Of a stretch of DNA of 64,000 nt, positions 9,781-59,830 are shown one piece after another (within the stretch, counting starts at the first letter, position 1; each line of letters opens with the position of its first letter). The position numbers were made by a program, and so were the translations under genes. The notes beneath the pieces were generated by a model. The model saw only the letters and a program-made list of their open reading frames with translations. It searched no databases and was not told the origin of the DNA. Origin of the DNA: Candidatus Puniceispirillales bacterium. GTDB lineage: Bacteria > Pseudomonadota > Alphaproteobacteria > Puniceispirillales > GCA-002684695. The stretch is from assembly GCA_045565515.1 (NCBI GenBank), contig JBJLFF010000019.1, positions 46,960 to 110,959 of the forward strand. Reading direction: 5' to 3'.

Positions 9781-11343
9781 TTAGGCCAATCTTTTTGGTG
9801 CTGGACTTTTATCAATATTTTCCATCATTTGGTTGATTAGTTTTTTGTACAACTTTGACCTTACTTTTGAAAAGTTTGCGTCGTCATAAAGATTATGTGT
9901 TTCAAAAGGGTCATTTTCTAAATCATACAATTCCCCAAAATTTTGATCCTTATATAAAGTGAACCTAAATTTTCCTGAAATTAGTGATCTAACAAATGCA
10001 GGTTTATCAAAACCAAATCTTACTATATTATCATGAAATTCAATCATTAAGTCTTCTCTTAAAGATTTATTATCTTTGATACTGCTAGAAATATCTTTTC
10101 CTTGAATTCCCCAATAAGGCTTTACTTCTGCTCTATTTAAAATAGTAGGAGCTATATCAATTGTAGATGAAAGTGCATTTGATAATTTTGAAACTCTTCC
10201 ACTTGGATCAGACCAAATAAAAGGTACCTTGGTAATTGACTGAAAGGGTAAAGCTCCTTTTAACATTAAAGAGAAATCTCCCATATAGTCACCATGGTCT
10301 GAAGTAAAAATAATCACTGTATTATCATATAGATTTCTTTCTTTAAGAGTTTTGATTACAGAGCCAACGGCGTCATCTATCATAGTAATCATACCTGCAG
10401 TAAGCGCCATACTTTCTTGAATTTGTCTTTTCTCAGTTAAAAATACAGATGTTTTACTTACAGGGTCTTTACCATCAAGGTAGTCTCTGTAAACTTTTTG
10501 CATGGGAGGTATAGGGTTCTTGTGAGAACTATATTCAAGTTTTACATCAAAATCATCTGGATTGTACATATCCCAGTATTTACCCGGAGGTGTAAATGGG
10601 TGATGAGGATCTGGAAATGATACAAATGATATGAATGGATTTTCATTATCTGATATTTTTTCAAAATATTCTTTAGCTTTTTTTTCTACAAAAGCAGTAG
10701 GATAAAACTCTTCTGGCACAGGTGTCCTGTATCCCTGCCTACAAGAATAATTATGAGGCAGTTCATTCTCAGGCCCAAAAAACTGTTCCCAGTTAGGGAA
10801 GTTTTCTTTTAACCATTGGAAGTAGTGTCCTTTACAATTGTTACCATGAGCTGTTACTAAATCTACATGTTCAAAGCCATAATATGGTTTTGGAATGTCA
10901 AAATAAACTTCTTTTTGGTAGTTTTTAAAGTCCTCAGAAGTGTAACTTCCATTATCTAACCATGCTTCTTTTACGGGCCCTAAATCGTCATCTTTAATCC
11001 AAGGATGTGGTGGTCCTGGGTCAAAACCTTGTAGATGAATTTTACCAAAACTTGAGGTTTGATATCCTGATTTTAACAAAACATCTACAAAAGTTGTAGC
11101 ACTTTTACTCAGATGGTTTCCATTATATCTTAAGCCATGAACAGACGGATACCTTCCAGTCATTAAAGAAGCTCTGTTTGGCATGCAAACTGGACTTGCA
11201 ACATAGAAATCAGAAAAGCTTGTCCCCAATGAAGAAATATTATCTATATTTGGAGTTTTAATAATATTATGGCCATTACAACCAAGATAATCCCATCTTA
11301 ACTGATCTGCCATGAATATTACAAAGTTGGGTTTTTTGCTCAT
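9781..11343 (-). CDS. Cys-type sulfatase, cytoplasmic (choline-sulfatase-like)
   Basis: 520 aa. N-terminus PNFVIFMADQLRWDYLGC, formylglycine signature CMPNRASLMTGR (CxPxR), and FTSDHGDYMGD. No signal peptide is visible. The stop lies only 8 nt before the zapE start. Confidence 0.85.
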   Translation of the reverse strand: MSKKPNFVIFMADQLRWDYLGCNGHNIIKTPNIDNISSLGTSFSDFYVASPVCMPNRASLMTGRYPSVHGLRYNGNHLSKSATTFVDVLLKSGYQTSSFGKIHLQGFDPGPPHPWIKDDDLGPVKEAWLDNGSYTSEDFKNYQKEVYFDIPKPYYGFEHVDLVTAHGNNCKGHYFQWLKENFPNWEQFFGPENELPHNYSCRQGYRTPVPEEFYPTAFVEKKAKEYFEKISDNENPFISFVSFPDPHHPFTPPGKYWDMYNPDDFDVKLEYSSHKNPIPPMQKVYRDYLDGKDPVSKTSVFLTEKRQIQESMALTAGMITMIDDAVGSVIKTLKERNLYDNTVIIFTSDHGDYMGDFSLMLKGALPFQSITKVPFIWSDPSGRVSKLSNALSSTIDIAPTILNRAEVKPYWGIQGKDISSSIKDNKSLREDLMIEFHDNIVRFGFDKPAFVRSLISGKFRFTLYKDQNFGELYDLENDPFETHNLYDDANFSKVRSKLYKKLINQMMENIDKSPAPKRLA

Positions 11344-11448
11344 TTATCTGTCACACCAATTTTTAAAATTTATTTAATTTTATTTTGCAAACTTTATGAT
11401 TACAAGTAATTGTTTATCAATTAAAAATTTTTGTTCAAGGGATTATAA

Positions 11449-12306
11449 ATGTCAAAAAATAAAGTTGTTCTTCTTGGTACTAAAGGTGGCCCAAGAATGG
11501 AAAAAGGTTTGAGTTGGTCAACATGTTCAGTTATTGAAGTTGAAGGGCATCCTTATATTGTTGATTGTGGGCTTGGTGTTACTAGGCAATTTGTCGAAGC
11601 AGGGTACTCTTTAAGTCAAGTTGATAATATATTTATAACGCACCATCATTCAGATCATAATTTAGAATTTGGTCCTTTAGTTCACACTTTATGGACATCT
11701 GGAACATCTGATCACGTTAATGTTTATGGTCCAAAAGGAACTCAAAACTTACTCGATGGTTTCCTAAAGTCTTTAGAAATTGATATTAATGTTAGAATTG
11801 AAGATGAAAAACAAAGAGATTTAGCTTCAATAATTAAAGTTTCAGAAATTTCTGAAGGTTTAGTCATGGAAGATGAAAGAGTAAAAGTCACTGCTCTAAA
11901 AGTTGTTCATGGGCTATTAGAAAATTGCTTTGCATTCAAATTTGAAACAAAAGACAAAAAAGTTGTTTTTTCAGGTGATACAATTTATTTTCCCCCTCTG
12001 ATTGAATTTTCTAAAGATGCTGATCTCCTTGTTCATGAAGTTATGTTAGAAAGAGGAATAAATGTCCTCGCTGAGAGATTAAAAAAAGTTAAACCTAATT
12101 TAATAGACCATTTAATGATAAGCCATACTACAGCTGAGGACGCAGCTAAGCTTGCAAAAGAAGCTAATGTAAAACACATGGTTTTTAATCACTATGTCCC
12201 TCATATTCCAAAGGAATTTCCTAATTCAGAGTTTGTAGATGCAGCTAAAAGAGTTTGGGATGGAAAAATAACTGCAGGCTATGATTTATGTGAGATTGAT
12301 TTTTAA
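11449..12306 (+). CDS. MBL-fold metallo-hydrolase, first cistron of the pca operon
   Basis: 285 aa. HxHxDH metal motif in FITHHHSDHNLEF, with further His/Asp-containing blocks downstream. Ends 11 nt upstream of pcaD. Confidence 0.75.
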   Translation: MSKNKVVLLGTKGGPRMEKGLSWSTCSVIEVEGHPYIVDCGLGVTRQFVEAGYSLSQVDNIFITHHHSDHNLEFGPLVHTLWTSGTSDHVNVYGPKGTQNLLDGFLKSLEIDINVRIEDEKQRDLASIIKVSEISEGLVMEDERVKVTALKVVHGLLENCFAFKFETKDKKVVFSGDTIYFPPLIEFSKDADLLVHEVMLERGINVLAERLKKVKPNLIDHLMISHTTAEDAAKLAKEANVKHMVFNHYVPHIPKEFPNSEFVDAAKRVWDGKITAGYDLCEIDF

Positions 12307-12317
12307 AAGGATAATTT

Positions 12318-13073
12318 ATGGGAATCAAACTTAATTTTAAATCTCAAGGTCAGGCTCACAATGAAACTATTTTATTTATTCATCCATTAGGAGCTGATCA
12401 TTCGGTTTTTGATTCTGTTATAAATGGTGTCAAAAATACTTATCATTGTATTTCTGTTGATATAAGAGGTCATGGAAAGTCTCCAGTTTTGGAGCCTCCT
12501 TATTCTATAGAAGAAATGGCACAAGATATTGCATCAACTTTTAACTTTGAAAGCCCGATTAATATAATGGGTGTTTCAATTGGTGGAATGATTGCAATGA
12601 GTCTAGAAATTAATAAAATGATACCTATCAAAAAATTAATACTATCTGATACTGGGCATAAAATTGGTAATCATGATCTTTGGCAAGAGAGAGTCGACTT
12701 GGTGCAGGCAGGTGGATTAGAGAAGATTGTTGATATGGCGATAGAAAGGTGGTTTCCCAAGGAATTTAGAGATGCTTCACCAAAAATTATGGAAGAGTGT
12801 AAAAGCCTTCAATTGAAAAATACAGTAAAAGGTTATGTGGGAGCTTGCCAGGCAATTCAATCAGAAGACTTAACAAATCACTTATCAAAAATTACATGCA
12901 AAGTTCTGGTTTTAACTGGTACCAAAGATATTTCAACACCACCTGAACTTGGTAAAGAATTAGCTGCTTTACTCCCTTATGGAAATTTTAAGGAATTAAA
13001 TGGTATTGGGCATGTACCACCTTTACAGAGCCCTGATATGATTATAAATATTTTACAAGAATTTCTAAATTAA
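12318..13073 (+). CDS. pcaD: 3-oxoadipate enol-lactonase
   Basis: 251-aa alpha/beta hydrolase. Nucleophile elbow GVSIGG and C-terminal GIGHVPPLQSP. Immediately precedes pcaC and pcaHG. Confidence 0.8.
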   Translation: MGIKLNFKSQGQAHNETILFIHPLGADHSVFDSVINGVKNTYHCISVDIRGHGKSPVLEPPYSIEEMAQDIASTFNFESPINIMGVSIGGMIAMSLEINKMIPIKKLILSDTGHKIGNHDLWQERVDLVQAGGLEKIVDMAIERWFPKEFRDASPKIMEECKSLQLKNTVKGYVGACQAIQSEDLTNHLSKITCKVLVLTGTKDISTPPELGKELAALLPYGNFKELNGIGHVPPLQSPDMIINILQEFLN

Positions 13074-13085
13074 GATGTTAAGAAA

Positions 13086-13472
13086 ATGACACAGAAAAAT
13101 AAAACGAGCACATATACAAAAGGCATGGAAATTAGGAGACAAGTGTTAGGAATTAAGCATGTTGAAAATGCTATAAAAAATACTAACAAAATTGATGAAA
13201 AATTTCAAAAATTTATAACTGAAGGTGCTTGGGGATCAGTCTGGTCAGGTGATCAGCTTACAAAAAGAGATAGAAGTTTAATAACGATTTCATTATTAGC
13301 AGCATTAGGTCATCATGAAGAGTTAGAAATGCATTTTAATGCATCTAAAAATACAGGCGCGACTTATAGTGAAATTGCTGAAACTTTAATGCATGTTGCT
13401 GTTTACGCAGGCGTGCCAGCATCTAACAGTGCATTCAAAATATTAAAAAAGGTTTTTCAAGAAAGTAAATAG
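13086..13472 (+). CDS. pcaC: 4-carboxymuconolactone decarboxylase
   Basis: 128 aa. CMD-family pattern AWGSVWSGDQLTKRDRSLITISLLAALGHHEEL. Lies in the pca gene context. Confidence 0.85.
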   Translation: MTQKNKTSTYTKGMEIRRQVLGIKHVENAIKNTNKIDEKFQKFITEGAWGSVWSGDQLTKRDRSLITISLLAALGHHEELEMHFNASKNTGATYSEIAETLMHVAVYAGVPASNSAFKILKKVFQESK

Positions 13473-13478
13473 ATCAAT

Positions 13479-14183
13479 ATGCAAAATAATCCATGGAACA
13501 AAAGAGATTGGTCAAACCATCCAGATTTGATTTATCCAGATTATAAATCTACAATTTTGAGGAACCCTCAAAACCCTCTCAAAAAACTAAATAATTTTAA
13601 CGAAATTCCTGGACCCAAGTTTGAAAGCTTTTCAATACGAACGATTGATTCTGATTTAACTTTAAATGCTAAAAAAGACCATAACCCTATAGGAGAAAGA
13701 ATTATTGTACTTGGGCAAGTTAAAGATGAATTTGGTAAGCCAGTACCAAATTGCCTAATAGAAATTTGGCAAGCAAATTCTGCAGGAAGATACGTTCACA
13801 GAGAAGAAATACATGATGCTCCTTTAGACCCCAATTTTTTAGGTGCAGGAATGACACTGACTGATGATAATGGAAATTATAAGTTTACTACAATAAAGCC
13901 CGGCTCTTACCCATGGGGTAATCATCATAATGCATGGCGACCAGCACATATTCATTTTTCTATCTTTGGAAGATCTTTTGTAGATAGACTTGTTACACAA
14001 ATGTATTTTGAAGGTGACCCATTATTTAAATACGATCCAATATTTAATTCAATTCCTGATAAAAAAGCTCAAAATAGACTAATTGCTAAATTTTCAATCG
14101 ATAAAACCGTTCCTGAGTTTGCCCATGCATATGTTTTTGATATTGTCCTCAGAGGGCGACAAGCAACGCCAATGGAAGTTTAA
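13479..14183 (+). CDS. pcaH: protocatechuate 3,4-dioxygenase beta subunit
   Basis: 234 aa. Intradiol dioxygenase blocks IEIWQANSAGRYVH and WRPAHIHFSIFG (iron ligands). Confidence 0.92.
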   Translation: MQNNPWNKRDWSNHPDLIYPDYKSTILRNPQNPLKKLNNFNEIPGPKFESFSIRTIDSDLTLNAKKDHNPIGERIIVLGQVKDEFGKPVPNCLIEIWQANSAGRYVHREEIHDAPLDPNFLGAGMTLTDDNGNYKFTTIKPGSYPWGNHHNAWRPAHIHFSIFGRSFVDRLVTQMYFEGDPLFKYDPIFNSIPDKKAQNRLIAKFSIDKTVPEFAHAYVFDIVLRGRQATPMEV

Positions 14184-14186
14184 AAA

Positions 14187-14756
14187 ATGAAAAAAAATAC
14201 TTTTTTACAAACTTCTTCTCAAACTGTAGGGCCTTTTTTTGCTTATGGGTTAACTGCCCAACAATATAGATATGACTTTCCAAGTCTATTTAATGGTAAT
14301 CTCAGAAAAAATGATATTGATGGAAAAGAAATTTCTATTAAAGGTAGGGTTTTAGATGGGAAAGGTAATCCTTTACATGATGCCATGATAGAGATTTGGC
14401 AAGCTGATCCACAAGGTAATTATAATACTGATCAAAATAGTGATTTTTTAGGTTTCGGGAGAATGGGAACGGGTAGTGACAATTTTATTGGGTTTAATTT
14501 TTTGACATATAAACCTGGAAAAATTAATGATAGTTCCGCGCCTCACATAAATTTAACAGTTTTTGCTAGAGGGATGCTTAATCATTTATTTACTAGAATA
14601 TATTTTTCTGATGAGAAAAACGAAATTGATGAAGTATTTAATCAAGTTGATCCATTACTAAGACCAAGATTAATTGCTGAAAAAGTTAATGAAGAAGAAT
14701 ATTATTTTGATATAATTCTTCAGGGTGAAAATGAGACGATATTTTTTGACATATAG
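14187..14756 (+). CDS. pcaG: protocatechuate 3,4-dioxygenase alpha subunit
   Basis: 189 aa. IEIWQADPQGNY and APHINLTVFARG blocks. Starts 3 nt after pcaH. Confidence 0.9.
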   Translation: MKKNTFLQTSSQTVGPFFAYGLTAQQYRYDFPSLFNGNLRKNDIDGKEISIKGRVLDGKGNPLHDAMIEIWQADPQGNYNTDQNSDFLGFGRMGTGSDNFIGFNFLTYKPGKINDSSAPHINLTVFARGMLNHLFTRIYFSDEKNEIDEVFNQVDPLLRPRLIAEKVNEEEYYFDIILQGENETIFFDI

Positions 14757-14776
14757 AATTTAATTAGGATGTTTTA

Positions 14777-15637
14777 ATGACAAAATTTTTATCATTAGAG
14801 GAGGGAGTAAGAGAAAATCTTAAACCTGGCAACCAAGTTTGTTTTGAGGGTTTTACACACCTAATTCCTCATGCTTCTGCTCATGAGGTTATTCGCCAAA
14901 AGATAGGCAGCTTAACTATAGTAAGAATGACACCCGATGTGATTTATGATCAGCTAATCGGAATGGGGTTGGTTAAGAAAATGATTTTTTCATATGCTGG
15001 GAATCCAGGAGTGGGTCTTTTAAGAAGGTTTCGTGACTCAGTTGAAAATGGATGGCCTAATAAAATTGAAATAGAAGAGCATTCTCATTCAGCTATGGCC
15101 CATGCTTATGAAGCGGGTGCTGCTGGTTTGCCATGTGCTATATTTCGGGGTTACATGGGCGCTGAATTAAGGGAGGTTAATTCAAATATAAAAGAAGTAA
15201 CTTGTCCATTTACTGGTGAAGAATTAACTGCAATACCTGCTTTAAATCCTGATGTAGCATTTATTCATGCGCAAAAGGCAGATAAAAAAGGAAATGTTTT
15301 AATTGAGGGAATACTAGGTGTTCAAAAAGAAGCCGTTTTAGCATCAAAAAGATCAATAGTAACTGTAGAGGAAATAGTAGAAAAATTAGATTGTCACCCC
15401 AACACAACAATACTTCCATATTGGACAACATCTGCAATTTGCCATGTTCCTGGAGGCGCTCACCCATCCTATGCTAGAGGTTATTATAAAAGAGATAACG
15501 CAAACTATATTGAGTGGGATAAAATTGCTTCTGACAGAGCAACTTTTTTAAGCTGGATGCAAGAAAATGTTATTAAAGTGTCCCCAAAAATATTTCAAAA
15601 TAGAATAAAAAATTTAAAAGAAGATGAAAATGAATAA
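14777..15637 (+). CDS. pcaI: 3-oxoadipate CoA-transferase subunit A (family I CoA-transferase)
   Basis: 286 aa. Glutaconate/3-oxoacid CoA-transferase A-subunit-like sequence. Overlaps the B subunit by 14 nt and lies between pcaG and pcaF. Confidence 0.8.
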   Translation: MTKFLSLEEGVRENLKPGNQVCFEGFTHLIPHASAHEVIRQKIGSLTIVRMTPDVIYDQLIGMGLVKKMIFSYAGNPGVGLLRRFRDSVENGWPNKIEIEEHSHSAMAHAYEAGAAGLPCAIFRGYMGAELREVNSNIKEVTCPFTGEELTAIPALNPDVAFIHAQKADKKGNVLIEGILGVQKEAVLASKRSIVTVEEIVEKLDCHPNTTILPYWTTSAICHVPGGAHPSYARGYYKRDNANYIEWDKIASDRATFLSWMQENVIKVSPKIFQNRIKNLKEDENE

Positions 15638-16415
15638 TAATTATTCTCCTGATGAAATGATGACTATAGTTGCATCAAGAGCTCTTAAGAATGATGATGT
15701 TTGTTTTGTTGGAATTGGAGCTCCGTCTGCAGCCTGTAATATAGCTAGATTAACTCACGCTCCAGACATAACACTTATCTATGAAAGTGGAACTATAGGT
15801 ACTGCACCAAATATTTTGCCTCTTTCGATTGGTGATGGGGAGCTATGTGAAACTGCTCTCACAACAGTTTCAGTTCCTGAAATGTTTAGGTATTGGCTTC
15901 AGGGTGGTAGGATTACTATTGGGTTTTTGGGTGCTGCTCAATTAGATAAGTTTGGAAATATTAATACAACAGTAATTGGAGATTACAGTGGACCCAAAAC
16001 TCGTTTGCCGGGTGGAGGTGGGGCTCCTGAAATAGCTTCATCTGCAAAACAAGTATATATAACAATGAAGCAATCTCTTAGAGGTATGGTAGAAAAAATA
16101 GATTTTTTCACTAGTTTTGGACATGGATCAGGAGGAAACGAGAGAAAATCAAGAAATATTAATACTGAAGGACCAAGTTTGTTAATAACAGATTTAGCAA
16201 TTTGGAAACCAGATCCGATTTCCAAGGAGTTTACTGTTCATTCACTTCATACTGGCGTTTCTAAAGAAATGGTCCAAGATAGTTGTGGGTGGAAGGTAAA
16301 GTATTCTGACAACATTGAAGTTACTGAACCACCTACAGAATTAGAATTAAAAACTTTAAGGGATTTAAAGGAAAGAACAAAAATAGCAAACTCAAGGAAA
16401 GATACAAACTTATGA
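15624..16415 (+). CDS. pcaJ: 3-oxoadipate CoA-transferase subunit B
   Basis: 263 aa. Catalytic-Glu region LIYESGTIG and glycine-rich loop LPGGGGAPE. ATGA overlap with pcaF. An alternative ATG lies at 15630. Confidence 0.8.
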   Translation: MKMNNNYSPDEMMTIVASRALKNDDVCFVGIGAPSAACNIARLTHAPDITLIYESGTIGTAPNILPLSIGDGELCETALTTVSVPEMFRYWLQGGRITIGFLGAAQLDKFGNINTTVIGDYSGPKTRLPGGGGAPEIASSAKQVYITMKQSLRGMVEKIDFFTSFGHGSGGNERKSRNINTEGPSLLITDLAIWKPDPISKEFTVHSLHTGVSKEMVQDSCGWKVKYSDNIEVTEPPTELELKTLRDLKERTKIANSRKDTNL

Positions 16416-17614
16416 AAGATGCTTTTATATGTGATGCAATTAGATCACCTATTGGAAGATTTGGTGGAAGCCTTGCAACAATTAGAGCTGATGATCTAGC
16501 ATCACTTTCATTAAAAGAATTAATAAAAAGAAATAGCTCAATAAATTGGGAAGACGTGGATGAGGTTGTTTTTGGCTGTGCTAATCAATCTGGTGAAGAT
16601 AATAGGAATGTAGCTAGGATGTCGCTATTACTTGCTGGACTGCCTCAAACAATTCCTGGAATTACAATCAATAGACTATGTGCTTCAGGATTAGAAGCTG
16701 TTACATATGCTGCTAGAATGATTAAATCTAATGAAGCGGATTTAGTCATTGCAGGTGGTGTAGAGAGTATGAGCAGAGCTCCATTTGTTATTCCAAAGTC
16801 ATCATCAGCTTTTTCAAGAAACGCTGAGATTTATGATACGACTATAGGATGGAGATTCATAAATCCAATCATGAAAGAAAAATATGGTGTTGATTCTATG
16901 CCAGAGACAGGAGAAAATGTTGCAGAACAATGGAATATAAGTAGAGAGGATCAGGATAAGTTTGCATTTTGGTCTCAAAAAAAGACTTCCAAAGCAATAT
17001 CATCTGGAAGATTTAAAAACGAGACTTTTAATATAAAAATTAATTTAAAAAAGAATGAAATAATTTTTAGAGGTGATGAACATCCTCGAGAGACTAGCAT
17101 AGAAAAACTAAACTCCTTACCAACTCCATTTAGAAAAAATGGAACTGTAACTGCGGGAAATGCAAGTGGAGTCAATGATGGCTCTGCTGCATTGATAATA
17201 GCATCAGAACAAGCAGTAAAAAAATATAACCTAAATCCAAGAGCAAAAATTATAAATTCTGCGGCGGTTGGTGTTGAACCAAGAATTATGGGAATTGGTC
17301 CTGTTGGAGCCACAAAAAAGGCTCTTTCACTTTCAAACCTAAATTTAGATAATATTCAAGTAATAGAATTAAATGAAGCTTTTGCCTCACAAGCTTTGGC
17401 AACGATTCGAGATTTGGGATTATCTGATGATGATGATCGTGTAAATATTAATGGTGGGGCAATAGCTTTAGGCCATCCATTGGGTATGTCAGGTGCTCGT
17501 TTGGTTCTAACTGCCACTGAAGAGTTACATCAAAATAATAATAATAAGATGGCTCTTTGTTCTATGTGTGTAGGTGTAGGACAAGGAAGTGCGATAATTC
17601 TTGAAAAAACTTAA
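16412..17614 (+). CDS. pcaF: 3-oxoadipyl-CoA thiolase
   Basis: 400 aa. Thiolase motifs [10 protein letters not shown] (active Cys), [24 protein letters not shown] and CVGVGQG. Confidence 0.9.
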
Positions 17615-17649: not shown

Positions 17650-18240
17650 TTATAAGGCTTTAAGGTTAAGATTTTTTCGGAATCTATTTTTTAACTCTAC
17701 TCCGTCTAATATAGGCAAACTTCTGGGTGGTAGTTGGGGTTCAACTTTTATATTTGCAAAAATGGGACCGTCAATAGGTGGAAGATAATCTATCAAATTA
17801 TTTAAATCATTATCAGATTTTACAGAAAAACTATGTTTAAAATTTGAAGCTTTTGCAATTTTATGTAGATCAACTCCAAATGAAGTATGGCTTTTTTGCA
17901 TTCCAGTTTCTCCATAATAGCCATTATCTAAAACTATAATAGACAAGTTATTTGGTTTTTGAACACCAATTGTTGCGAGTGAACCCACTCCCATTAATTG
18001 TTCGCCATCTCCAGTTATTACTATTACTGGTAAATTTGGATTAGCCATTGCTAGTCCAAGCCCAACCATTGCAGCACCTCCCATGGCACCCCATAAGTAA
18101 AAGTTTGAATCATTATCACCAGCATCAAATACATCATATGTTGGTGACCCTAAACCAGTAATTATCTTAGCTGCTTTTCGATTATCAACTATCTGTTTTA
18201 CAACTGATCTTCTTTTTAAATTAATATCTTTTCCTACCAT
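17650..18240 (-). CDS. comE: TPP-dependent sulfopyruvate/phosphonopyruvate decarboxylase, beta subunit
   Basis: 196 aa. TPP-binding motif ITGDGEQLMG...LDNG. Overlaps the alpha-subunit gene by 7 nt. The split two-subunit layout matches ComDE-type enzymes. Confidence 0.65.
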   Translation of the reverse strand: MVGKDINLKRRSVVKQIVDNRKAAKIITGLGSPTYDVFDAGDNDSNFYLWGAMGGAAMVGLGLAMANPNLPVIVITGDGEQLMGVGSLATIGVQKPNNLSIIVLDNGYYGETGMQKSHTSFGVDLHKIAKASNFKHSFSVKSDNDLNNLIDYLPPIDGPIFANIKVEPQLPPRSLPILDGVELKNRFRKNLNLKAL

Positions 18241-18749
18241 TCTTTTCTTCCAAGTAATCTTTGGGATAATAAAACAGCAATTTGTTGGTCACTTGAAAAG
18301 GCACTGTATAATGCTGCATCAGTAAAAGAGATTACATCTATTGGATTAGTAGCTTTATGAACTACTACACCCATATTTTCTAGGCAACCTTGCGTAGCTT
18401 TACCCATTGGAACTTGCCATGAATTAAATTCTCCAAATTCTCCACGCATAGTAATCAAAGTAACAAAAGGGAAATTACAATTTGACAATAATGAAAGCAT
18501 GTTAATACAGTTTCCAACACCACTGCTTTGCATTAAAAGAACAGATTTTTTGCCACCAAGCCAACAACCACCTGAAAAGGCAACACCCTCTTCTTCAGTA
18601 CTTAAAACTATAGGTTTTATAGATTGATCTTCTTCTGAAAGTGAAATTAATTTGGCATGTCCTGCATCAGGTACATATGGCAAAAAATTAATTTTATGCC
18701 TTTTTATAATGTCAAATAAATTTTTTTCCCAGTTGTTGTCAGTAATCAT
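18234..18749 (-). CDS. comD: TPP-dependent sulfopyruvate/phosphonopyruvate decarboxylase, alpha subunit
   Basis: 171 aa. Pyrimidine-binding half of a TPP enzyme (LSTEEEGVAFSGGCWLGGKKSVLLMQSSGVGN). Coupled to the beta subunit. Confidence 0.65.
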   Translation of the reverse strand: MITDNNWEKNLFDIIKRHKINFLPYVPDAGHAKLISLSEEDQSIKPIVLSTEEEGVAFSGGCWLGGKKSVLLMQSSGVGNCINMLSLLSNCNFPFVTLITMRGEFGEFNSWQVPMGKATQGCLENMGVVVHKATNPIDVISFTDAALYSAFSSDQQIAVLLSQRLLGRKEW

Positions 18750-18924: not shown

Positions 18925-20478
18925 ATGATTACAGAAGTAAAAAGAAGAAATAAAAGAAAAAATCATCAGGATGATTTCAAGCAAATTGATCCAGTTATCT
19001 CAAAAGGTATGGAAGGTGGTAATTACAAACCATTAAGTGATAACGATATAAAAAAAATATATTCAACTGCATTAGAAGTATTAGAAAACTTAGGCGTTGG
19101 AAACCCATTGCCAGAACTATTAGATGCTGCAATTAATCAAGGTTGTAAAGTTAATGATGAAGGCAGGTTATGTTTTCCAAAGTCATTAGTAGAGGATGTA
19201 ATCAGTAGGGCAGGAAGGAACTTTACTTTATATGGGAGAGATCCAAAATATGACATTGAGCTTTCTGGAAATAAAGTCAATTTATTTGGAGCTGGTGAGG
19301 CAGTTTCAGTATTAGATTTGGGAGCAAATAAGTATCGCCCTTCAACTATCAACGATGTTTATGATATTGCTAGGATGGTCGACTATTTAGATAATATTCA
19401 TAGCTATTCCAGATTTGTGGTTCCAACAGAATTAAGTGAAGATTTATTGGTTGCTGACATTAACACAGCTTATGCAAGTTTAATGGGCACACAAAAGCAT
19501 ACGGCCCTTACATTTTCGGATGGAAAAAATGTTAAACCGACACTTGAAATGCTAGATATAATTGCAGGGGGAGAAGGAGAGTTTATAAAAAGACCATTTT
19601 GTCATGGAGGTGGCTGTACTATCGTTTCACCTTTACAATATGGAACTGATAATTGCGAAGTGGCTCTAGCATCATTACAATTAAATGCTCCAATTTGGGT
19701 TGTAATAGCACCTCAATCTGGAGCCACGGCACCTGCAGCTCTTGCAGGGTGTTTAGTACAGGCTTTAGCAGAGACTTTGGCGAGTCTTTTACTTATAGAT
19801 CTTATTAAACCAGGGCATCCTGTTATTTTTGGCCCTTGGCCTTTTGTTACAGACTTAAGAACAGGTGCTTTTTCTGGTGGTGGAGGTGAAGAAGCAATTA
19901 TGAGTGCAGCTTCAGCACAAATTACTAATTATTGCGGATTAGTTAGTTCAGTAGGTGCTGGTATGACTGATGCTAAAAGTCCTGATGCTCAGGCAGGTTA
20001 CGAAAAAGGTATTTCAATAGTGATGGCAGCATTAGCTGGTTGTAATAATGTCTCTGAATCTTCTGGAATGATGGCAAGTTTAATGGGATGCTCTTATGAG
20101 TCTCTTGTTATTGATAATGAAATGCTAGGTATGGTAATGAGAGTTGTTCGGGGTATTGAAGTCAACGATGATACTTTGTCTTATGACGTTATTAAGAAAA
20201 CTATTAAGGGTGAGGGGCACTTTTTAAGATCATCTCAAACATTGTCTCTCATGAAAACAGAGTATTTATATCCAGAATTAGCAGATAGATCTAGGCAAGA
20301 AGAATGGGAAGTTGAGGGTTCACCAGATATGAGAAAAAGAGCTGAACTTCATGCAAGAAAAATCTTAAACTCACATTATCCAGTTTATATAGATGATGAA
20401 ACTGATAAAAAAATTCGCGATAGATTCCCCATAAAAATAACAAAAAATATCATTAAACCTGATGCTAATAGGTTTTAA
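18925..20478 (+). CDS. MttB-superfamily (trimethylamine methyltransferase-like) protein, non-pyrrolysine type
   Basis: 517 aa. N-terminal pattern PLSDNDIKKIYSTALEVLENLGV is typical of the MttB family. The frame is uninterrupted, with no in-frame TAG. Confidence 0.75.
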   Translation: MITEVKRRNKRKNHQDDFKQIDPVISKGMEGGNYKPLSDNDIKKIYSTALEVLENLGVGNPLPELLDAAINQGCKVNDEGRLCFPKSLVEDVISRAGRNFTLYGRDPKYDIELSGNKVNLFGAGEAVSVLDLGANKYRPSTINDVYDIARMVDYLDNIHSYSRFVVPTELSEDLLVADINTAYASLMGTQKHTALTFSDGKNVKPTLEMLDIIAGGEGEFIKRPFCHGGGCTIVSPLQYGTDNCEVALASLQLNAPIWVVIAPQSGATAPAALAGCLVQALAETLASLLLIDLIKPGHPVIFGPWPFVTDLRTGAFSGGGGEEAIMSAASAQITNYCGLVSSVGAGMTDAKSPDAQAGYEKGISIVMAALAGCNNVSESSGMMASLMGCSYESLVIDNEMLGMVMRVVRGIEVNDDTLSYDVIKKTIKGEGHFLRSSQTLSLMKTEYLYPELADRSRQEEWEVEGSPDMRKRAELHARKILNSHYPVYIDDETDKKIRDRFPIKITKNIIKPDANRF

Positions 20479-25400: not shown

Positions 25401-27499
25401 GAACCAATCAACTAAACAACCTTAACAGACTATTTAATCCAAAGAATATAGCAGTTTTTGGCGGTAACGATGCTGAAATAGTTATTTCTCAATGTAAAAA
25501 AATGGGGTTTAAAGGTGAAATTTGGCCTGTAAATCCAAAAAGGGATTTAATTAATGGAATTAAATGTTTCTCTTCTGTAAATGACCTTCCAAAAGGACCC
25601 GATGCTTCATTTATAGCAGTTCCAAGACAACCAGCAATTGAAATAGTTAAACAATTAAATGAAATGAATTCTGGCGGTGGTGTATGCTATACAGCTGGAT
25701 TTAGAGAGGTTGGAGAAGAAGGCTCAAAGCTTGAAAAAGAACTTTTAGACAATGTTGGTGACTTTGCATTAATTGGCCCAAATTGTTATGGAATGATAAA
25801 TTATGTTAATAAAATAGCTCTTTGGCCTTTTGACCACGGAGGTAATTTCCCAGGTTTTGGTGCAGCAGTTATTACTCAAAGTGGAATGCTTTCAAATGAC
25901 CTTTCCACTAGTCGTAGATCAATGCCTTTTGCATATATGGTGTCAGCTGGAAACCAGTCTGTTTTATCAATAGAAGACTATGTAGATTTTTTTTCTCAAA
26001 AAGAAGAAGTTAAAGCCATTGGTCTTCATATAGAAGGCCTCCAAGACATAGAAAAATTTCAAAGAGGCTGCTTAAAGGCATTAGAAAGAAAAGTACCCAT
26101 CGTCGCAATTAAAACTGGTTCATCAACCATAGGTAATAATCTTGTAAGCAGTCATACCGGATCGCTATCAGGGACAGATGAAATATATAACTCATTATTT
26201 GATCATTTAGGTATAATAAGAGTAACAAACCCACATGAATTTTTGGAAACGCTAAAGTTTTTATGTATTTCTGGTCCAGTTTCTGGAAAAAGAGTTGCTG
26301 CATTTACTTGCTCTGGTGGAGGCGCCACAATGCTTGCAGATTATGCTGAAAAAATTAATTTAGAATTTAATCAACCATCAAAAAAAGTAGATTGTGAACT
26401 AAAAAAATTACTTCCTTTAACAGCTACCGTTTCTAATCCTTTAGATTATACTACACCAATATGGGGGCAGCCTGAGAAAACAGGCCCTGTTTTTAACACG
26501 TTTTTTAAAGATAAATATGATTGTGCCATTTTAGTCCAAGATTATTTACCACCAGGAATTAATGAGCTTAATAAGTATTATTTATATGATGCAAAAGCTT
26601 TTTTTGAAGCTTCTCAAAAACTTAAATTACCTTCTATAATTTGTAGTACTGTCCCAGAAAATAATGATCCAGAAATATCTGATTTTTTTGTTAGCAATAA
26701 GGTTACTCCATTACAAGGATTAGAGGAAGCACTGAATGCTGTGAAACGAAGTTACAAATTTAATCAACGATATAAAGATTACCTTGATGGCAAAGTCTTT
26801 GTTAAAAAATCTATCACAAATTCTTTAAAAAATCCTTTGATGCTAAATGAAATTGAGTCGAAATCAATTCTTAAAAAAATTGGTTTGAGAATACCAAGTT
26901 TTTTGAACGGGAAAAATTATTTAAATGCAAATAATTCTAATGATCAAAACTTTAAATTAAATTTTCCAGTTTGCGCAAAAATGGTTAGTAATGATGTTGA
27001 ACATAAAACTGATATAGGTGCAATACAGTTAAATATTAATAGTTTAAATGAACTTAATTTAGCTCTTAAAAAAATAGAAATTAACGTCAAAAATGCTAAA
27101 ATAAGTTTTACAGATGATTTTCTTGTCGAAGAAATGCAGCCTAGTCCACTAGGAGAGCTTTTAGTTGGTATATTTTATGACCAACAATTTGGATATGTAA
27201 TGACGATAGCTTCTGGTGGTATACTAGCTAACCTATTGGAGGATTCGATTTCTATTTTACTTCCAGCATCTTCAGATGAAATAGATAGTTCTTTAAAAAA
27301 ATTAAAAATTAATAAGTTATTTTCTGGTTACCGAGGGAAAAAAGAAATTAATAGGAAATTACTTTTAAAAAACTTAAAAAAACTTTCTGATTTTGTAATT
27401 GACCCAAATAATAAAATTCAACAATTAGAAATAAACCCGTTATTTGTTTTTGAAGAAAACAATGTAGCTGTTGATGCCATTATTTGGAAATCTAAATGA
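25397..27499 (+). CDS. ADP-forming acyl-CoA synthetase (fused alpha/beta, acetate--CoA ligase family)
   Basis: 700 aa. CoA-binding start NPKNIAVFGGND, SucD-like IGPNCYG, phosphohistidine block SSHTGSLSG and a C-terminal ATP-grasp half. ATGA overlaps on both sides. Confidence 0.85.
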   Translation: MRTNQLNNLNRLFNPKNIAVFGGNDAEIVISQCKKMGFKGEIWPVNPKRDLINGIKCFSSVNDLPKGPDASFIAVPRQPAIEIVKQLNEMNSGGGVCYTAGFREVGEEGSKLEKELLDNVGDFALIGPNCYGMINYVNKIALWPFDHGGNFPGFGAAVITQSGMLSNDLSTSRRSMPFAYMVSAGNQSVLSIEDYVDFFSQKEEVKAIGLHIEGLQDIEKFQRGCLKALERKVPIVAIKTGSSTIGNNLVSSHTGSLSGTDEIYNSLFDHLGIIRVTNPHEFLETLKFLCISGPVSGKRVAAFTCSGGGATMLADYAEKINLEFNQPSKKVDCELKKLLPLTATVSNPLDYTTPIWGQPEKTGPVFNTFFKDKYDCAILVQDYLPPGINELNKYYLYDAKAFFEASQKLKLPSIICSTVPENNDPEISDFFVSNKVTPLQGLEEALNAVKRSYKFNQRYKDYLDGKVFVKKSITNSLKNPLMLNEIESKSILKKIGLRIPSFLNGKNYLNANNSNDQNFKLNFPVCAKMVSNDVEHKTDIGAIQLNINSLNELNLALKKIEINVKNAKISFTDDFLVEEMQPSPLGELLVGIFYDQQFGYVMTIASGGILANLLEDSISILLPASSDEIDSSLKKLKINKLFSGYRGKKEINRKLLLKNLKKLSDFVIDPNNKIQQLEINPLFVFEENNVAVDAIIWKSK

Positions 27500-28902
27500 C
27501 CTTAATTCACCGTCTATTTCTATTCATTATTTTTATATTATTTCCGGTCATTTCTTTTGCGCATGTTTCAGAAAGAGCTTTAATTCTTTTACTTCCAACA
27601 GAATTTTATATTCCAGCTGGTATTTCAGTTTTAATACTCACGATTTTAATAGCTTATTTAACTCCAGTCTCATTCATAACATCTCTTTTCAAATCTCATG
27701 AATTGAAAATTAATTTTAATAAATATATTTCTATAAACCAACTTGAAAATTTGAAAATTTTTACGAGCTGTGTAAGTTTTTTATTTTTGATAATTTTAAT
27801 AATTTTTGGGTTTATAGGCTCCAGAGACCCACTAGCAAATCCTTTATCCCTATTTATTTGGTCAGTTTGGTTTATGGTAATGCCTGTAATTCAGATTCTG
27901 TTAGGTAACGCTTGGGCATTTTTAAATCCTTGGTATGGAATAGGAAAATTATTTTTTAAAGATAAGAAAGTCTATAAATTAAATAGTAATTACTCGCTTA
28001 TATTTTCGTCAGCAGGATTTTTACTTTTTTCAATGTTTATGTTAGTGGACATTGCTCCTGATGACCCTGACAGGCTTGCAAATATTGTAACTCTATACTT
28101 TTTAATAAATCTTTTGTTTGTAAAGATTTTTGGTGTCAATTGGCTTGAAAAGGGTGAATGTTTTACCGCATTTTATGGATTACTGTCTAAATTGTCATGG
28201 ATTTGGATAATGGAAGGCAAAATTCATATTGGTTTTTTTGGTTCTCAACTTAAAAAAATTAAAACGTTTCCTTCTTTGTCTGTTTTGTTTTTATCAATAA
28301 TTTTAGCAACATTATCTTTTGATGGATTAAATGAAACATTTCTTTGGTTCAAGGTAATTGATGTAAACCCTTTAGAGTTTCACGGAAGATCATCAGTTAT
28401 TATTGAGAACTCCTTTGGTTTAATTTTTTTTGCGGTAATGTTATTTTTTATATTTTCAATAACTATATTTTTAGGTCATAAATTTATAAATGAAAGAGTA
28501 CCTTTTAAAGAAATCATAGGCATCAACTCCATTGCACTTCTACCGATCGCTCTTGCTTATCATATAGCTCATTATTTGACATCATTTTTGGTAAACATAC
28601 AATATTCATATAAAGTAGCTTCTGACCCTCTAAACAATGGCAAAGACTTTTTTAATATAGGTGATTTTAATGTTACCACTAGTTTTTTTAATACTATTGA
28701 AACAGTTAAACTAATTTGGTTTATTCAAGCATCAGCAATTGTCATAGGGCATGTCATAGCTGTTTTGTTGGCTCATTCAATTTGTGAGGGATATCTAAAA
28801 AAGAAATCGTCTATATTAATCAGTCAATTCCCAATTAGTATATTTATGATTTGTTATACTTTTCTTGGATTATGGATACTATCAACGCCAACAGTCGGAT
28901 AA
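27496..28902 (+). CDS. polytopic membrane protein of unknown function
   Basis: 468 aa with roughly 10-12 hydrophobic segments. N-terminal signal-like segment ends VISFA/HVSE. Paired His residues sit in late helices (AYHIAHYL, IGHVIAVLLAH). Translationally coupled (ATGA) to the synthetase gene. Confidence 0.7.
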   Translation: MTLIHRLFLFIIFILFPVISFAHVSERALILLLPTEFYIPAGISVLILTILIAYLTPVSFITSLFKSHELKINFNKYISINQLENLKIFTSCVSFLFLIILIIFGFIGSRDPLANPLSLFIWSVWFMVMPVIQILLGNAWAFLNPWYGIGKLFFKDKKVYKLNSNYSLIFSSAGFLLFSMFMLVDIAPDDPDRLANIVTLYFLINLLFVKIFGVNWLEKGECFTAFYGLLSKLSWIWIMEGKIHIGFFGSQLKKIKTFPSLSVLFLSIILATLSFDGLNETFLWFKVIDVNPLEFHGRSSVIIENSFGLIFFAVMLFFIFSITIFLGHKFINERVPFKEIIGINSIALLPIALAYHIAHYLTSFLVNIQYSYKVASDPLNNGKDFFNIGDFNVTTSFFNTIETVKLIWFIQASAIVIGHVIAVLLAHSICEGYLKKKSSILISQFPISIFMICYTFLGLWILSTPTVG

Positions 28903-28997: not shown

Positions 28998-30284
28998 ATG
29001 AAAAAAATAATAAAAAATAATATTTCTAGAAGAAAATTAATGAAAGGTGTAGCAGCTGCAGGAAGTGTAGCAGCAATGCCTGGATTTGTAAGATACAGTC
29101 AAGCGGCAAGTTCAGAGCCGATTAAGATTGGATTTCAAGTTCACAGAACTGGGATTGGAGCTGCCTACGGAAGGTGGTATGATAGAACAACTCAAGCTGC
29201 TGTAAAAGTTATTAATGATGCAGGCGGCATTAATGGCCGACCAGTTGAAGTTGTTGCTGAAGATGATGGAACTGATCCAAAAAGAGGCGCAGAAGCGCTT
29301 GAAAAATTTGCAAACCAGCATAGCTGTGATGTTGCGTTTGGAACTCTTTTTTCTCATGTTGTAATCGGTTCTGCGCCTAGAGCAGGGGAATTAAAGCTTC
29401 CATATTTTGTTGTATCTGAAGGGCACCATGTAGCTTCAGGCATGCTTAATAGATATACATTACAACCTGGCATTACTGATGTTAAAAGCCAAGTTCAAGC
29501 AATGGCTCCTTTTGTAAAAGAAAATTTAGGTAAGAAAGTTACTATGGTATACCCAGACTTTGCTTTTGGTCATGATCATAGAGATTATTTTTCAGCTGCT
29601 TTTGAGGCTCAAGGTGGGCAAATCATTGCCAAAGTTCCAATTCCACCAACAGAATCTAGTTTTTCAAAATATTTCCCTAAAATTCCAAGAGATACAGAAG
29701 TATTATATCACGTGATGGTTGGGCCAGCTGTTTTAACTTTTGTTAAAGAGCTTGGTGAATTCTATGGATCAAAAAGTCCAAAACTATTTGGATTTATTGA
29801 TAGCGTTGAAGCTGTAGATTTAAGCACTCCAGGACTAGAGTTCCTAGATGGCAGTTATTTTTGGGAAGGAAATCCAAGGTACGCTCAGGCAAACCAAAGT
29901 GATCATGATAAATTTTACAGAGCAGCTATTGGCGTAGATGCTAATGGTGCCTCTGCATCTGACCCTAAAGATGTTTCAACGTATGCTCATATGTTTGGAT
30001 GCTGGGAAACACTCCATATTATTAAAAAAGGTATGGAGGAATCAGGTTACTCTGGAGTTGGTGACAGGGCTAAATTAATTGAAGCTGTTGAAAGTATGAG
30101 TGATATGCCATTATCTCAGGCTCACCCTCAGGGAGCTAAAATATTTAATGGTAAAACTCACCAAACATTTGGTCATCAATATATAACTAAAATGACTAAT
30201 GGAAAGTTAGTTCTAGCGCATACGACATCAATTGAGGATACCTTCTATCCTGATGAAGTTGATTACACTAAACAATCATTTTAG
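28998..30284 (+). CDS. ABC transporter substrate-binding protein (Leu/Ile/Val-binding, type-1 PBP family) with Tat-like signal
   Basis: 428 aa. N-terminus NISRRKLMKGVAAAGSVAAMPG matches the twin-arginine pattern. IKIGFQVHRTGIGAAYG is typical of LivK-like SBPs. Followed by livHMGF. Confidence 0.85.
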   Translation: MKKIIKNNISRRKLMKGVAAAGSVAAMPGFVRYSQAASSEPIKIGFQVHRTGIGAAYGRWYDRTTQAAVKVINDAGGINGRPVEVVAEDDGTDPKRGAEALEKFANQHSCDVAFGTLFSHVVIGSAPRAGELKLPYFVVSEGHHVASGMLNRYTLQPGITDVKSQVQAMAPFVKENLGKKVTMVYPDFAFGHDHRDYFSAAFEAQGGQIIAKVPIPPTESSFSKYFPKIPRDTEVLYHVMVGPAVLTFVKELGEFYGSKSPKLFGFIDSVEAVDLSTPGLEFLDGSYFWEGNPRYAQANQSDHDKFYRAAIGVDANGASASDPKDVSTYAHMFGCWETLHIIKKGMEESGYSGVGDRAKLIEAVESMSDMPLSQAHPQGAKIFNGKTHQTFGHQYITKMTNGKLVLAHTTSIEDTFYPDEVDYTKQSF

Positions 30285-30305
30285 TTTAAATTGACTTAAA
30301 ACAAC

Positions 30306-31187
30306 ATGGATTTAGGGCCTTATCTACTTTTTGCTTCATTAGAAGGCCTTGTCCATGCAGCTGTACTATCTCTCATTGCTCTGGGATTAAGTTTAGTATT
30401 TGGAGTAATGAGAATAGTAAATGTTGCACATGGTGAGTTTTTTATGCTTGGCGCTATACTGGCGTGGTGGGTATCAAGCTTTGCTTTAGGAAATCCAGCA
30501 ATAGGTTTTTTATTAGCATTATTAATAGCTCCTTTGATTGCTGGTATTATTGCAATGTTTTCAGACTGGTTGATTTTGAAACGTTTAAAATACGATCCTG
30601 AAGCTACAATTATAGCAACAATTGGAATTTTATATATTATTCAACAAGCTGCTTTAATGACTTTTGGACCTGATGCAAGACCAGTTGAACAACCATTTAA
30701 TATAAGATTAGATCTGTATTGGTTTGGATTTTCGGCATATAAGTTTTTTGTTATTTTTGCTGCCATAGTTCTGTTATTAGGTGTTTGGCTGGTTATGGCT
30801 AAAACTAAGTTTGGTCTTCTTTTAAGAGCTACGCAATTAGACAGTGAAACAGCTCAAGCTTTTGGAATACCTATTTCAACTGTATATAGCCTTGTTTTTG
30901 GTGCTGGTGCGGCTATAGCTGCAGTTGGTGCTGTTCTCATAGTTCCAATTCAGCAAGCGCATTATTTAATGGGAGGAGAACCATTACTTCTAGCCTTTAT
31001 TGTAGTTATTATCGGTGGCTTAGGAAGCCTAAGAGGAACTGTTGCTGCTGCTGTTCTTATAGGTATGAGTGATGGTATAATATCAGTTTTTTTCTCTCCA
31101 AATTTAGCAAAAATATTAGCAACTTTATTAGTTGTATTTGTTTTATTAATAAAGCCTAACGGATTATTTGGAACAGCTAAAGCATGA
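30306..31187 (+). CDS. livH: branched-chain amino acid-type ABC permease
   Basis: 293-aa hydrophobic protein. LSLVFGVMRIVNVAHGEFFMLGA is typical of the LivH family. Confidence 0.88.
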   Translation: MDLGPYLLFASLEGLVHAAVLSLIALGLSLVFGVMRIVNVAHGEFFMLGAILAWWVSSFALGNPAIGFLLALLIAPLIAGIIAMFSDWLILKRLKYDPEATIIATIGILYIIQQAALMTFGPDARPVEQPFNIRLDLYWFGFSAYKFFVIFAAIVLLLGVWLVMAKTKFGLLLRATQLDSETAQAFGIPISTVYSLVFGAGAAIAAVGAVLIVPIQQAHYLMGGEPLLLAFIVVIIGGLGSLRGTVAAAVLIGMSDGIISVFFSPNLAKILATLLVVFVLLIKPNGLFGTAKA

Positions 31188-36614: not shown

Positions 36615-36726
36615 TATAAATCACCTATACTTTAAATTTTTATTCTTACATATTCAGCATGATTTTTATTCCACGTCAAATAACTTAAGTATATAAATGA
36701 AAGAAGTATTTTGGAGAAAATGTTTA

Positions 36727-37113: not shown

Positions 37114-37118
37114 AATTT

Positions 37119-37913: not shown

Positions 37914-37940
37914 ATATTTAAATTAGAGTTTAATTATAAA

Positions 37941-38870: not shown

Positions 38871-38872
38871 TC

Positions 38873-39475: not shown

Positions 39476-39500
39476 ATATTAACTGTTAGAAGTTTTTAGG

Positions 39501-41802: not shown

Positions 41803-41980
41803 TATTTACCATAAAAATAAAACAATGGATGCTAACTAAATCTAAAAGAAACAAAATTAAGAATAATAATAAAAATAAATATTTTTTATTTAAAAAAGAT
41901 TGCTTTATAATATATTGCATTATTGACTTTAATTTATTTGACTGACCAATTTTCTCGAATAGAACTAGAGAGGTTCAATT

Positions 41981-48351: not shown

Positions 48352-48369
48352 AATATTTAAAGTTTTATT

Positions 48370-59811: not shown

Positions 59812-59830
59812 TTATAAAGTCTTGAAAAAT

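Follow-up and report, generated by a model that had tools for sequence, protein, structure and literature searches.

A metallo-beta-lactamase-fold hydrolase, divergent from a sulfatase gene, heads a protocatechuate operon lacking pcaB in a SAR116 bacterium

The protocatechuate branch of the beta-ketoadipate pathway is represented in the Alphaproteobacteria by operons of the pcaDCHGB type, and a variant form has been described in SAR116 subclade III, where pcaIJ is lacking and gctAB, located in an operon with pcaGH, has been proposed to take the same role (bioRxiv 10.64898/2026.07.17.739263). The same preprint reports that, among subclade III genomes, "some were also missing pcaB," and that pobA is present in them at unlinked positions. 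Here we analyze an operon at positions 11449–17614 of a 64,000-nucleotide (nt) stretch of Candidatus Puniceispirillales bacterium (assembly GCA_045565515.1, contig JBJLFF010000019.1, positions 46,960–110,959 of the forward strand), referred to as the window. With the pcaDCHGB-type operons it shares enzymes for ring cleavage, decarboxylation and thiolysis, putative ones for enol-lactone hydrolysis and coenzyme A (CoA) transfer, and the D-C-H-G gene order, and with the subclade III form it shares the presence of both a gctAB-type CoA-transferase and fadA/pcaF inside the operon. Unlike the pcaDCHGB-type operons, it is accompanied by no pcaB in 64 kb and by no adjacent pcaQ/pcaR, pobA or pcaK, its first cistron encodes a metallo-beta-lactamase (MBL)-fold hydrolase, and a divergent sulfatase gene is probably served by the same promoter region. 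The operon represents a genuine variant form of the protocatechuate pathway in SAR116, partly described before: earlier work already covers the operon itself, the exchange of its CoA-transferase and the uneven occurrence of pcaB, and the preprint discusses neither the MBL gene nor the sulfatase, the word "lactamase" being absent from its main text (bioRxiv 10.64898/2026.07.17.739263). The new element of the locus is the conserved divergent pair formed by the sulfatase and an MBL hydrolase resembling SulfAtlas family S4. The reading put forward here, which is given an even chance of being correct, is that the MBL protein is an accessory hydrolase of an anionic phenolic-acid ester, within a SAR116 protocatechuate branch whose lactonising step would be encoded outside the locus.

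Family assignments were made with Pfam and NCBIfam models, and bit scores were compared with the cutoff of each NCBIfam model. The operon and its upstream region comprise the following features (aa, amino acids):

9781–11343, minus strand: formylglycine-type (S1) sulfatase, 520 aa; Pfam Sulfatase PF00884 (1.5e-45) and SGSH_C
11378–11414, unstranded: conserved element of ~37 nt, TTTTATTTTGCAAACTTTATGATTACAAGTAATTGTT, from the alignment of the 105-bp sulfatase–MBL intergenic region
11449–12306, plus strand: MBL-fold binuclear-metal hydrolase, 285 aa, ElaC/AtsA clade; Pfam Lactamase_B_2 / Lactamase_B, NCBIfam
12318–13073, plus strand: PcaD-like 3-oxoadipate enol-lactonase, alpha/beta hydrolase, 251 aa; TIGR02427
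13086–13472, plus strand: PcaC, 4-carboxymuconolactone decarboxylase, 128 aa; TIGR02425 (163.2 bits, cutoff 155.7), Pfam CMD
13479–14183, plus strand: PcaH, the beta subunit of protocatechuate 3,4-dioxygenase; TIGR02422 (331.7 bits, cutoff 296.4), PCDO_beta_N and Dioxygenase_C
14187–14756, plus strand: PcaG, the alpha subunit of protocatechuate 3,4-dioxygenase; TIGR02423 (198.2 bits, cutoff 126.25)
14777–15637, plus strand: CoA-transferase subunit A, 286 aa, glutaconate-CoA-transferase type, putative PcaI role; PF01144
15624–16415, plus strand: CoA-transferase subunit B, 263 aa, putative PcaJ role; PF01144
16412–17614, plus strand: PcaF, 3-oxoadipyl-CoA thiolase, 400 aa; TIGR02430 (647.2 bits, cutoff 597), PRK09050 (665 bits, cutoff 605)

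An earlier reading of the window, made from its sequence only, had described eight packed plus-strand genes, and all the open reading frames (ORFs) lie where that sequence-only reading had placed them, with successive gaps of 11, 12, 6, 3, 20, −14 and −4 nt. Its identification of PcaC, PcaH, PcaG and PcaF agrees with the models, each protein scoring above the cutoff of its NCBIfam model, and the calls of PcaD, PcaI and PcaJ hold in part. The PcaD-like protein scores 223.2 bits against TIGR02427, below the cutoff of 255.85, but this is its best-matching family across the full length. In related loci, whose arrangements are given below, pcaD orthologs at 59–72% identity are found just 3' of the MBL gene, which they adjoin in arrangements A, B, C and E and from which a single gene separates them in F; pcaC is the neighbour of pcaD in A, E and F, and the pcaD ortholog stays by the MBL gene where pcaCHG is absent. 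The proteins called PcaI and PcaJ form a pair of the glutaconate type that reaches only 38 and 30 bits against the pcaI/pcaJ subfamily models (38 bits being the score with the pcaI/scoA model), below their cutoffs. Homologs of this pair (53–66% identity) adjoin pcaF and pcaHG in 16 soil and freshwater metagenome loci, and a lyase-signature ORF of 389–487 aa is found within the cluster in 11 of the more distant pca loci, suggesting that a glutaconate-type transferase is the regular PcaIJ of this operon family and that the ancestral operon likely had pcaB. The order gctAB-pcaF-pcaD-pcaC-pcaB-pcaH-pcaG is seen in one such locus (L097). On these grounds, the CoA-transferase pair of the window would fill the PcaIJ role.

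The lactonising step, which converts 3-carboxymuconate to 4-carboxymuconolactone, is not encoded at the locus. PcaB was searched for in the window in three ways: by a six-frame scan for the lyase-1 signature, by Pfam on large ORFs, and by tblastn with the bona fide PcaB of L097 (667 bits to PRK09053) and a divergent pca-linked lyase as queries. In agreement with the absence asserted previously, tblastn returned nothing above 23 bits in the 64 kb, and Pfam assigned no Lyase_1 domain to 19 other ORFs, each at least 330 aa long; four further ORFs of that size, left out of the scan, all belong to the suc-mdh block, and their counterparts in a nearly identical locus (L091) carry 2-oxoacid dehydrogenase E1/E2, CoA-ligase and AFG1 domains. 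The sole six-frame match to the GS..M..K.N signature, at 24627, is a chance occurrence inside an acyl-CoA dehydrogenase. A 468-aa ORF at 27496–28902 (plus strand), considered as a cryptic PcaB, was set aside, having neither a Pfam or NCBIfam match nor similarity to either lyase. In its plus-strand cluster, genes for a luciferase-like monooxygenase, an acyl-CoA dehydrogenase and an acyl-CoA synthetase (ADP-forming) precede this ORF, and a Liv-type (Peripla_BP_6) ATP-binding cassette (ABC) transporter follows it.

Beyond the window, the six or seven arrangements of related loci are all devoid of a lyase-1 gene; in related operons of other bacteria pcaB is located between pcaC and pcaH or after pcaG (L097, L099, L117, L127, L142). 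In a sister marine lineage (PcaH 76–78% identical; L096 and L175), pcaHG has a lyase-1 gene as its neighbour, and the contig carries no MBL gene. This lyase gene (L096:554–1912, minus strand; L175:3582–4718, plus strand) is divergent from pcaHG, and its product is 28% identical to PcaB, falls below all NCBIfam cutoffs and is closest to PurB/XcbD-like models. It is followed by genes for a 246-aa protein with no Pfam match, a glutathione S-transferase and a zinc-type alcohol dehydrogenase, with no pcaC or pcaD nearby, and the locus may serve a different downstream route for carboxymuconate. An unlinked copy of this lyase in the clade of the window was also considered; the 62% identical relative (523 member sequences), which comes after an Opp-type ABC transporter on a contig of 30% GC content, is not attributable to the window genome.

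Published gene tables bear on the same step. Among 45 genomes listed in Table S6 of the preprint, KEGG entry K01857 is present in 6 of 6 pcaH-positive IIa genomes and absent in 5 of 5 pcaH-positive IIb.II/IIc genomes, and the sole subclade III single-amplified genome (SAG) among those listed, AG_333_N20 (67% complete), is without it (bioRxiv 10.64898/2026.07.17.739263). The SAGs of that study are 58–81% complete, so that gene absences in them constitute weak evidence. Given this incompleteness, the report that only some subclade III genomes are without pcaB, and the unlinked location of pobA, an unlinked pcaB is the most likely source of the lactonising step, the less likely alternatives being a divergent lyase overlooked by KEGG and a genuine gap in the pathway.

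The first cistron had been described as encoding a 285-aa MBL-fold protein with an HHHSDH motif, which was confirmed, with the motif at residues 65–70. A profile built from 18 members of its family and searched against PDB sequences ranks arylsulfatase 8gyg first over its full length (E-value 5.5e-44), 20 orders of magnitude ahead of RNase Z (4.5e-24). BLASTP aligns the protein with 8gyg, from Pseudoalteromonas atlantica, at 30% identity over the full length (299 columns). In line with these matches, the AlphaFold model of the protein (predicted local distance difference test score 90.6, predicted template modelling score 0.91) retrieves 8gyg as its best Foldseek match (template modelling score 0.88); RNase Z, a homologue of ElaC, PNGM-1 and YhfI rank below it.

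Family S4 of SulfAtlas was founded on AtsA of P. carrageenovora and lies next to RNase Z in the superfamily; its members have been assayed on artificial aryl sulfates only, with phenolic sulfates suggested as substrates, and membership is defined by at least 30% full-length identity to the characterised AtsA (PMC5066984). The MBL protein resembles the S4 arylsulfatases (AtsA; 8gyg) in its fold, its HxHxDH metal motif, a length close to their ~290–300 aa, an N-terminal GT-x-GGP motif and its proximity to RNase Z. Its 30% identity places it at the S4 threshold, but with 8gyg of P. atlantica, and not AtsA P28607, as the reference; on sequence, its membership in S4 would be borderline. It differs from S4 in the low identity, in the lack of a signal peptide, which makes it presumably cytoplasmic, and in invariant residues of its own (R16, T45-R46-Q47, R116, D119-E120 and K215). 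Neither the MBL protein nor the neighbouring sulfatase has a signal peptide, and any substrate must hence be imported. Fifty-nine columns are invariant across the SAR116, Paracoccaceae and Granulosicoccus sequences of the family, arguing for one common activity. The likeness to RNase Z and ElaC extends to the superfamily branch, the metal ligands and partial model matches. It is limited by scores of about half the equivalog cutoffs (136 bits against a cutoff of 252, and 135 against 293), with matches split in two stretches, and by size, at 285 aa compared with models of 302–307 positions and solved chains of 306–320 aa; its genomic context is catabolic, compared with RNA processing for RNase Z. 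With PcaB, a class II fumarase of the lyase-1 superfamily, the MBL protein has in common only the position of the pathway gap, both fold and catalytic apparatus being unrelated.

The divergent gene upstream encodes an S1 sulfatase containing the CMPNR form of the C-x-P-x-R maturation motif. Its best NCBIfam match, arylsulfatase PRK13759 (248 bits), is under the cutoff, as is the choline-sulfatase model. The gene is divergent from that of the MBL protein in every related locus whose upstream side is on the contig, and the element at 11378–11414 is nearly unchanged in arrangements A, B, C, D and F, including D, which has no pca genes. This element is probably the common promoter/operator region of the sulfatase and MBL genes. 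It contains a palindromic TTGCAA and a TTAC-NN-GTAA half-palindrome, and no regulator gene is adjacent.

Related loci were found by exact-protein look-up and viewed as the 10-kb flanks of each gene. Their MBL proteins are 65–100% identical to that of the window, and they fall into six or seven arrangements:

A (MBL 99–100% identical; L091–93): the type of the window
B (80%; L094): MBL-pcaD-DUF1989-[1056-aa reductive dehalogenase fusion]-pcaC-H-G-gctAB-pcaF
C (81%; L081–86): MBL-pcaD-DUF1989, with cytochrome P450, amidohydrolase_2 and other genes on the other strand; no pcaCHG within 10 kb
D (86%; L087–90): MBL alone, then a convergent aminotransferase
E (65%; L095, L178): MBL-pcaD-C-H-G, ending against sdhB
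F (80%; L183–185): MBL-PhyH-pcaD-C-H-G-gctAB-pcaF
L192 (88%): MBL-pcaD-DUF1989...

Each of the four arrangement types bearing pcaHG (A, B, E and F) has the MBL gene as its first cistron. The MBL proteins of B (L094) and C (L081) are 99% identical, and pcaCHG-gctAB-pcaF is found in B only. The comparison of arrangements indicates that the stable unit is the sulfatase–MBL pair, usually with pcaD, and that the pca and tailoring genes are its cargo. The insertion between pcaD and pcaC in L094, from SAG AG-343-K16, comprises a DUF1989 protein and a 1056-aa fusion (L094:6649–9819) in which a reductive dehalogenase domain, above the TIGR02486 cutoff at 196 bits, is joined to a flavin/ferredoxin reductase module; judged from its domains, the fusion looks like a self-sufficient aerobic dehalogenase that would feed dehalogenated phenolic acids into the pathway. 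The PhyH-family gene between MBL and pcaD is intact (307 aa) in L184 (7883–8806) and L185, and is split in L183 (7882–8806) into ORFs of 127 and 171 aa by a frameshift or an assembly error.

The wider family was surveyed through orthologs in 80 genomes of other lineages, at 35–51% identity to the MBL protein of the window. None of the 80 has a pca gene within 10 kb, and clustering revealed no general conserved neighbour family. Individual loci are more telling. An S1 sulfatase gene adjoins the MBL ortholog with a 0-nt gap in L013, where it is PehA-like, and in convergent orientation in L003, and an SsuA-like binding protein is encoded beside the ortholog in L042. The ortholog directly follows a bona fide pobA in L002:8784–10861, with a 5-nt gap (TIGR02360, 547 bits against 539), and neighbours a large aromatic flavin hydroxylase in L008. 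In a Bosea metagenome-assembled genome (L010:4969–8990), the order is hmgA-MBL-fahA-maiA (maiA, 264 bits against 171), the MBL gene overlapping its neighbour on either side by 4 nt, within a homogentisate pathway that is complete without the MBL protein. Adjacency to an S1 sulfatase is hence seen in three unrelated lineages (L013, L003 and SAR116), and adjacency to pobA, hmgA or pca genes in three more. By a rough estimate that assumes a few sulfatase genes per genome, 80 loci would show about 0.1–0.2 sulfatase adjacencies by chance, and two were seen in addition to that of SAR116. Phenolic acids (4-hydroxybenzoate, protocatechuate and homogentisate) are common to the aromatic contexts. All of these contexts would suit an aryl-sulfate or related aryl-ester hydrolase, and only one would suit a cycloisomerase activity. 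Among the 63 immediate co-directional neighbours annotated, the commonest was a COG0523 (CobW-like) metallochaperone (6/63), whose gene lies 0–18 nt after the MBL ortholog in L021, L022, L029, L031, L034 and one more locus, mostly from Paraburkholderia, Burkholderia and Robbsia; this neighbourhood suggests zinc-limitation-linked expression of the MBL family and fits a zinc enzyme.

In the model proposed here, the sulfatase–MBL pair is resident, and the pca operon would be read from the promoter of that pair. The MBL protein would hydrolyse an anionic phenolic-acid ester, most plausibly an aryl sulfate, and the freed phenol would then undergo ring cleavage by PcaHG and be processed by PcaC, PcaD, the CoA-transferase of the glutaconate type in the place of PcaIJ, and PcaF. 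The same slot would be occupied in sister genomes by other funnel enzymes: the fusion with a reductive dehalogenase, a dioxygenase of the PhyH family or a P450. The lactonising step would be supplied by an unlinked protein of the lyase-1 family, canonical or divergent, or by an enzyme not yet recognised. We infer the sulfate-ester substrate, the co-regulation of both arms and the location of pcaB; the gene identities, the lack of pcaB at the locus, the sulfatase–MBL pairing, the varying content downstream and the structural kinship to an arylsulfatase are shown. Of the three options offered by the sequence-only reading (pcaB elsewhere in the genome, the MBL protein as a replacement for the lactonising enzyme, or the MBL protein as a processor of an upstream aromatic ester or lactone), the last is the best supported, a sulfate ester being a likelier substrate than a lactone.

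Several observations weigh against this model. Transfer of function at 30% identity within the MBL superfamily is weak, and the S4 assays on which it draws are limited to artificial aryl sulfates (PMC5066984). In the pairwise alignment, the family-invariant R16, R46 and R116 have no counterpart in 8gyg, and the substrate may hence differ from that of 8gyg. Most of the 80 distant orthologs lack an informative neighbour, no transporter that would take up a sulfated aromatic compound was recognised, and the pairing with the sulfatase within SAR116 could be plain inherited synteny. Furthermore, the position of the MBL gene at the head of all four pcaHG-bearing arrangements, none of which carries a lyase gene, and the reverse situation in the sister lineage, form the same pattern that displacement of PcaB would leave.

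The rival explanation that best survives is that the MBL protein is a resident housekeeping zinc hydrolase, such as an RNase Z-like phosphodiesterase or nuclease, with no role on aromatic compounds or sulfate esters, and that insertion of the pca genes and further cassettes downstream of its promoter was incidental. The locus does occupy a variable region between the suc-mdh and sdh blocks, where content shifts between close relatives in the manner of a genomic island, and the unrelated neighbours of most distant orthologs, the partial NCBIfam matches to RNase Z and to cyclic-nucleotide phosphodiesterase, and the closeness in fold of the promiscuous RNase Z-like proteins PNGM-1 and YhfI all agree with it. 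Nevertheless, every RNase Z model stays far under its cutoff, arylsulfatase 8gyg is clearly the best match, the adjacent cassettes (dehalogenase, PhyH, P450) are all aromatic-tailoring, and S1 sulfatase, pobA, hmgA and pca neighbours recur across lineages, where by the rough estimate above fewer than 0.2 sulfatase adjacencies would arise by chance in 80 loci. This explanation is considered unlikely, if by no means negligible.

A second alternative concerns the gap itself and postulates that no dedicated cycloisomerase exists, the pathway being incomplete, dependent on cross-feeding, or completed by a moonlighting lyase such as adenylosuccinate lyase. The lack of pcaB in all of the six or seven related arrangements and, among the genomes listed, of K01857 in AG_333_N20, itself 67% complete, is compatible with this view, and the closest paralogs of PcaB are PurB-like lyases. 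The retention of seven intact, tightly coupled pca genes argues instead for a working pathway, absences in partial SAGs carry little weight, pcaB is reported in some subclade III genomes (bioRxiv 10.64898/2026.07.17.739263), and the unlinked pobA of those genomes makes dispersed pathway genes normal. The absence of any dedicated enzyme hence appears improbable.

Two types of enzyme are known to lactonise 3-carboxy-cis,cis-muconate, the bacterial lyase-1 proteins and a fungal beta-propeller, and the MBL protein could in principle be a third, metal-dependent and non-homologous type that displaced pcaB in SAR116 subclade III. The pattern noted above, the presence of pcaB inside related operons of other bacteria, the distribution of K01857 among the listed genomes (absent in all five IIb/IIc and present in all six IIa SAGs with pcaH), and several invariant Arg and Lys residues that could bind a polycarboxylate all speak for such a replacement. 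It is nonetheless the least credible of the explanations, with a small chance of being correct, since 99%-identical MBL proteins occur with and without pcaCHG (L094 and L081) and an 86% ortholog is monocistronic (L087), none of the 80 distant orthologs lies near a pca gene, the family is too conserved for a lineage-specific new activity, the Bosea ortholog is superfluous to a homogentisate operon that is already complete, the nearest characterised relative hydrolyses sulfate esters, and pcaB is missing in only some subclade III genomes (bioRxiv 10.64898/2026.07.17.739263). The trans-dienelactone hydrolase, considered as a precedent for an MBL-fold zinc lactonase, is shown by the literature to be a cyclase-like PF04199 protein. 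To our knowledge, no MBL-fold enzyme catalyses a carboxylate-to-alkene cycloisomerisation.

The synteny of the locus also defines its host. The backbone lpd-sucBA-sucDC-mdh-AFG1-sulfatase–MBL is 99–100% identical in several marine metagenome contigs and ~80% identical in SAG AG-343-K16 (GCA_902532475.1), which belongs to SAR116 subclade III (IIc in tables), with a GC content of 33.6% and an estimated size of 3.1 Mb (bioRxiv 10.64898/2026.07.17.739263). By synteny, the window matches subclade III, to which it would hence be assigned. Aromatic ring cleavage had been considered notable for a streamlined genome; protocatechuate cleavage is however reported across SAR116, and, with genome size estimates of 1.8–3.1 Mb for the clade (bioRxiv 10.64898/2026.07.17.739263), the host is not an extreme streamliner. 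The claim that the window lacks a regulator, transporter, pobA and pcaK is accurate for the surroundings of the operon, which no regulator or transporter gene adjoins, and for PobA-type or major facilitator superfamily-type proteins, none of which occur among the 19 scanned ORFs of at least 330 aa. It does not extend to the whole window, which contains the following features, none of them adjacent to the operon:

52273–53184: LysR-type regulator
28998–33524: ABC uptake system
46474–52159: ABC uptake system
56414–61348: ABC uptake system

Directly after pcaF, at 17650–18749 (minus strand), lies a split thiamine pyrophosphate (TPP) enzyme resembling the alpha and beta subunits of sulfopyruvate decarboxylase, below the corresponding cutoffs, followed at 18925–20478 (plus strand) by a non-pyrrolysine homolog of the MttB methyltransferase family; arrangement F adds an NAD-binding dehydrogenase. 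The TPP enzyme and MttB-like genes next to pcaF constitute a further sulfur-related theme at the locus. In addition to a Rid-family protein and a second PcaD-like alpha/beta hydrolase, which scores 157 bits against TIGR02427, a second cluster at 36697–42769 (plus strand) encodes a flavin reductase, a CoA-transferase of family III, an aminotransferase and another MBL-fold protein, of 262 aa and unrelated to the first.

SAR116 bacteria are among the most abundant marine heterotrophs, and protocatechuate is the hub of their aromatic carbon use. If pcaB is merely unlinked and the MBL protein a bystander, the finding is an ordinary one. The question raised by the locus is what enzyme performs the lactonisation of 3-carboxymuconate in a clade whose seven pca genes stay together, never with pcaB among them. 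If the sulfatase–MBL pair does desulfate phenolic acids, the beta-ketoadipate pathway would in the open ocean have a direct input of sulfated phenolics from algae and seagrasses, and the pair would provide a first physiological role for the poorly known S4-like MBL hydrolases.

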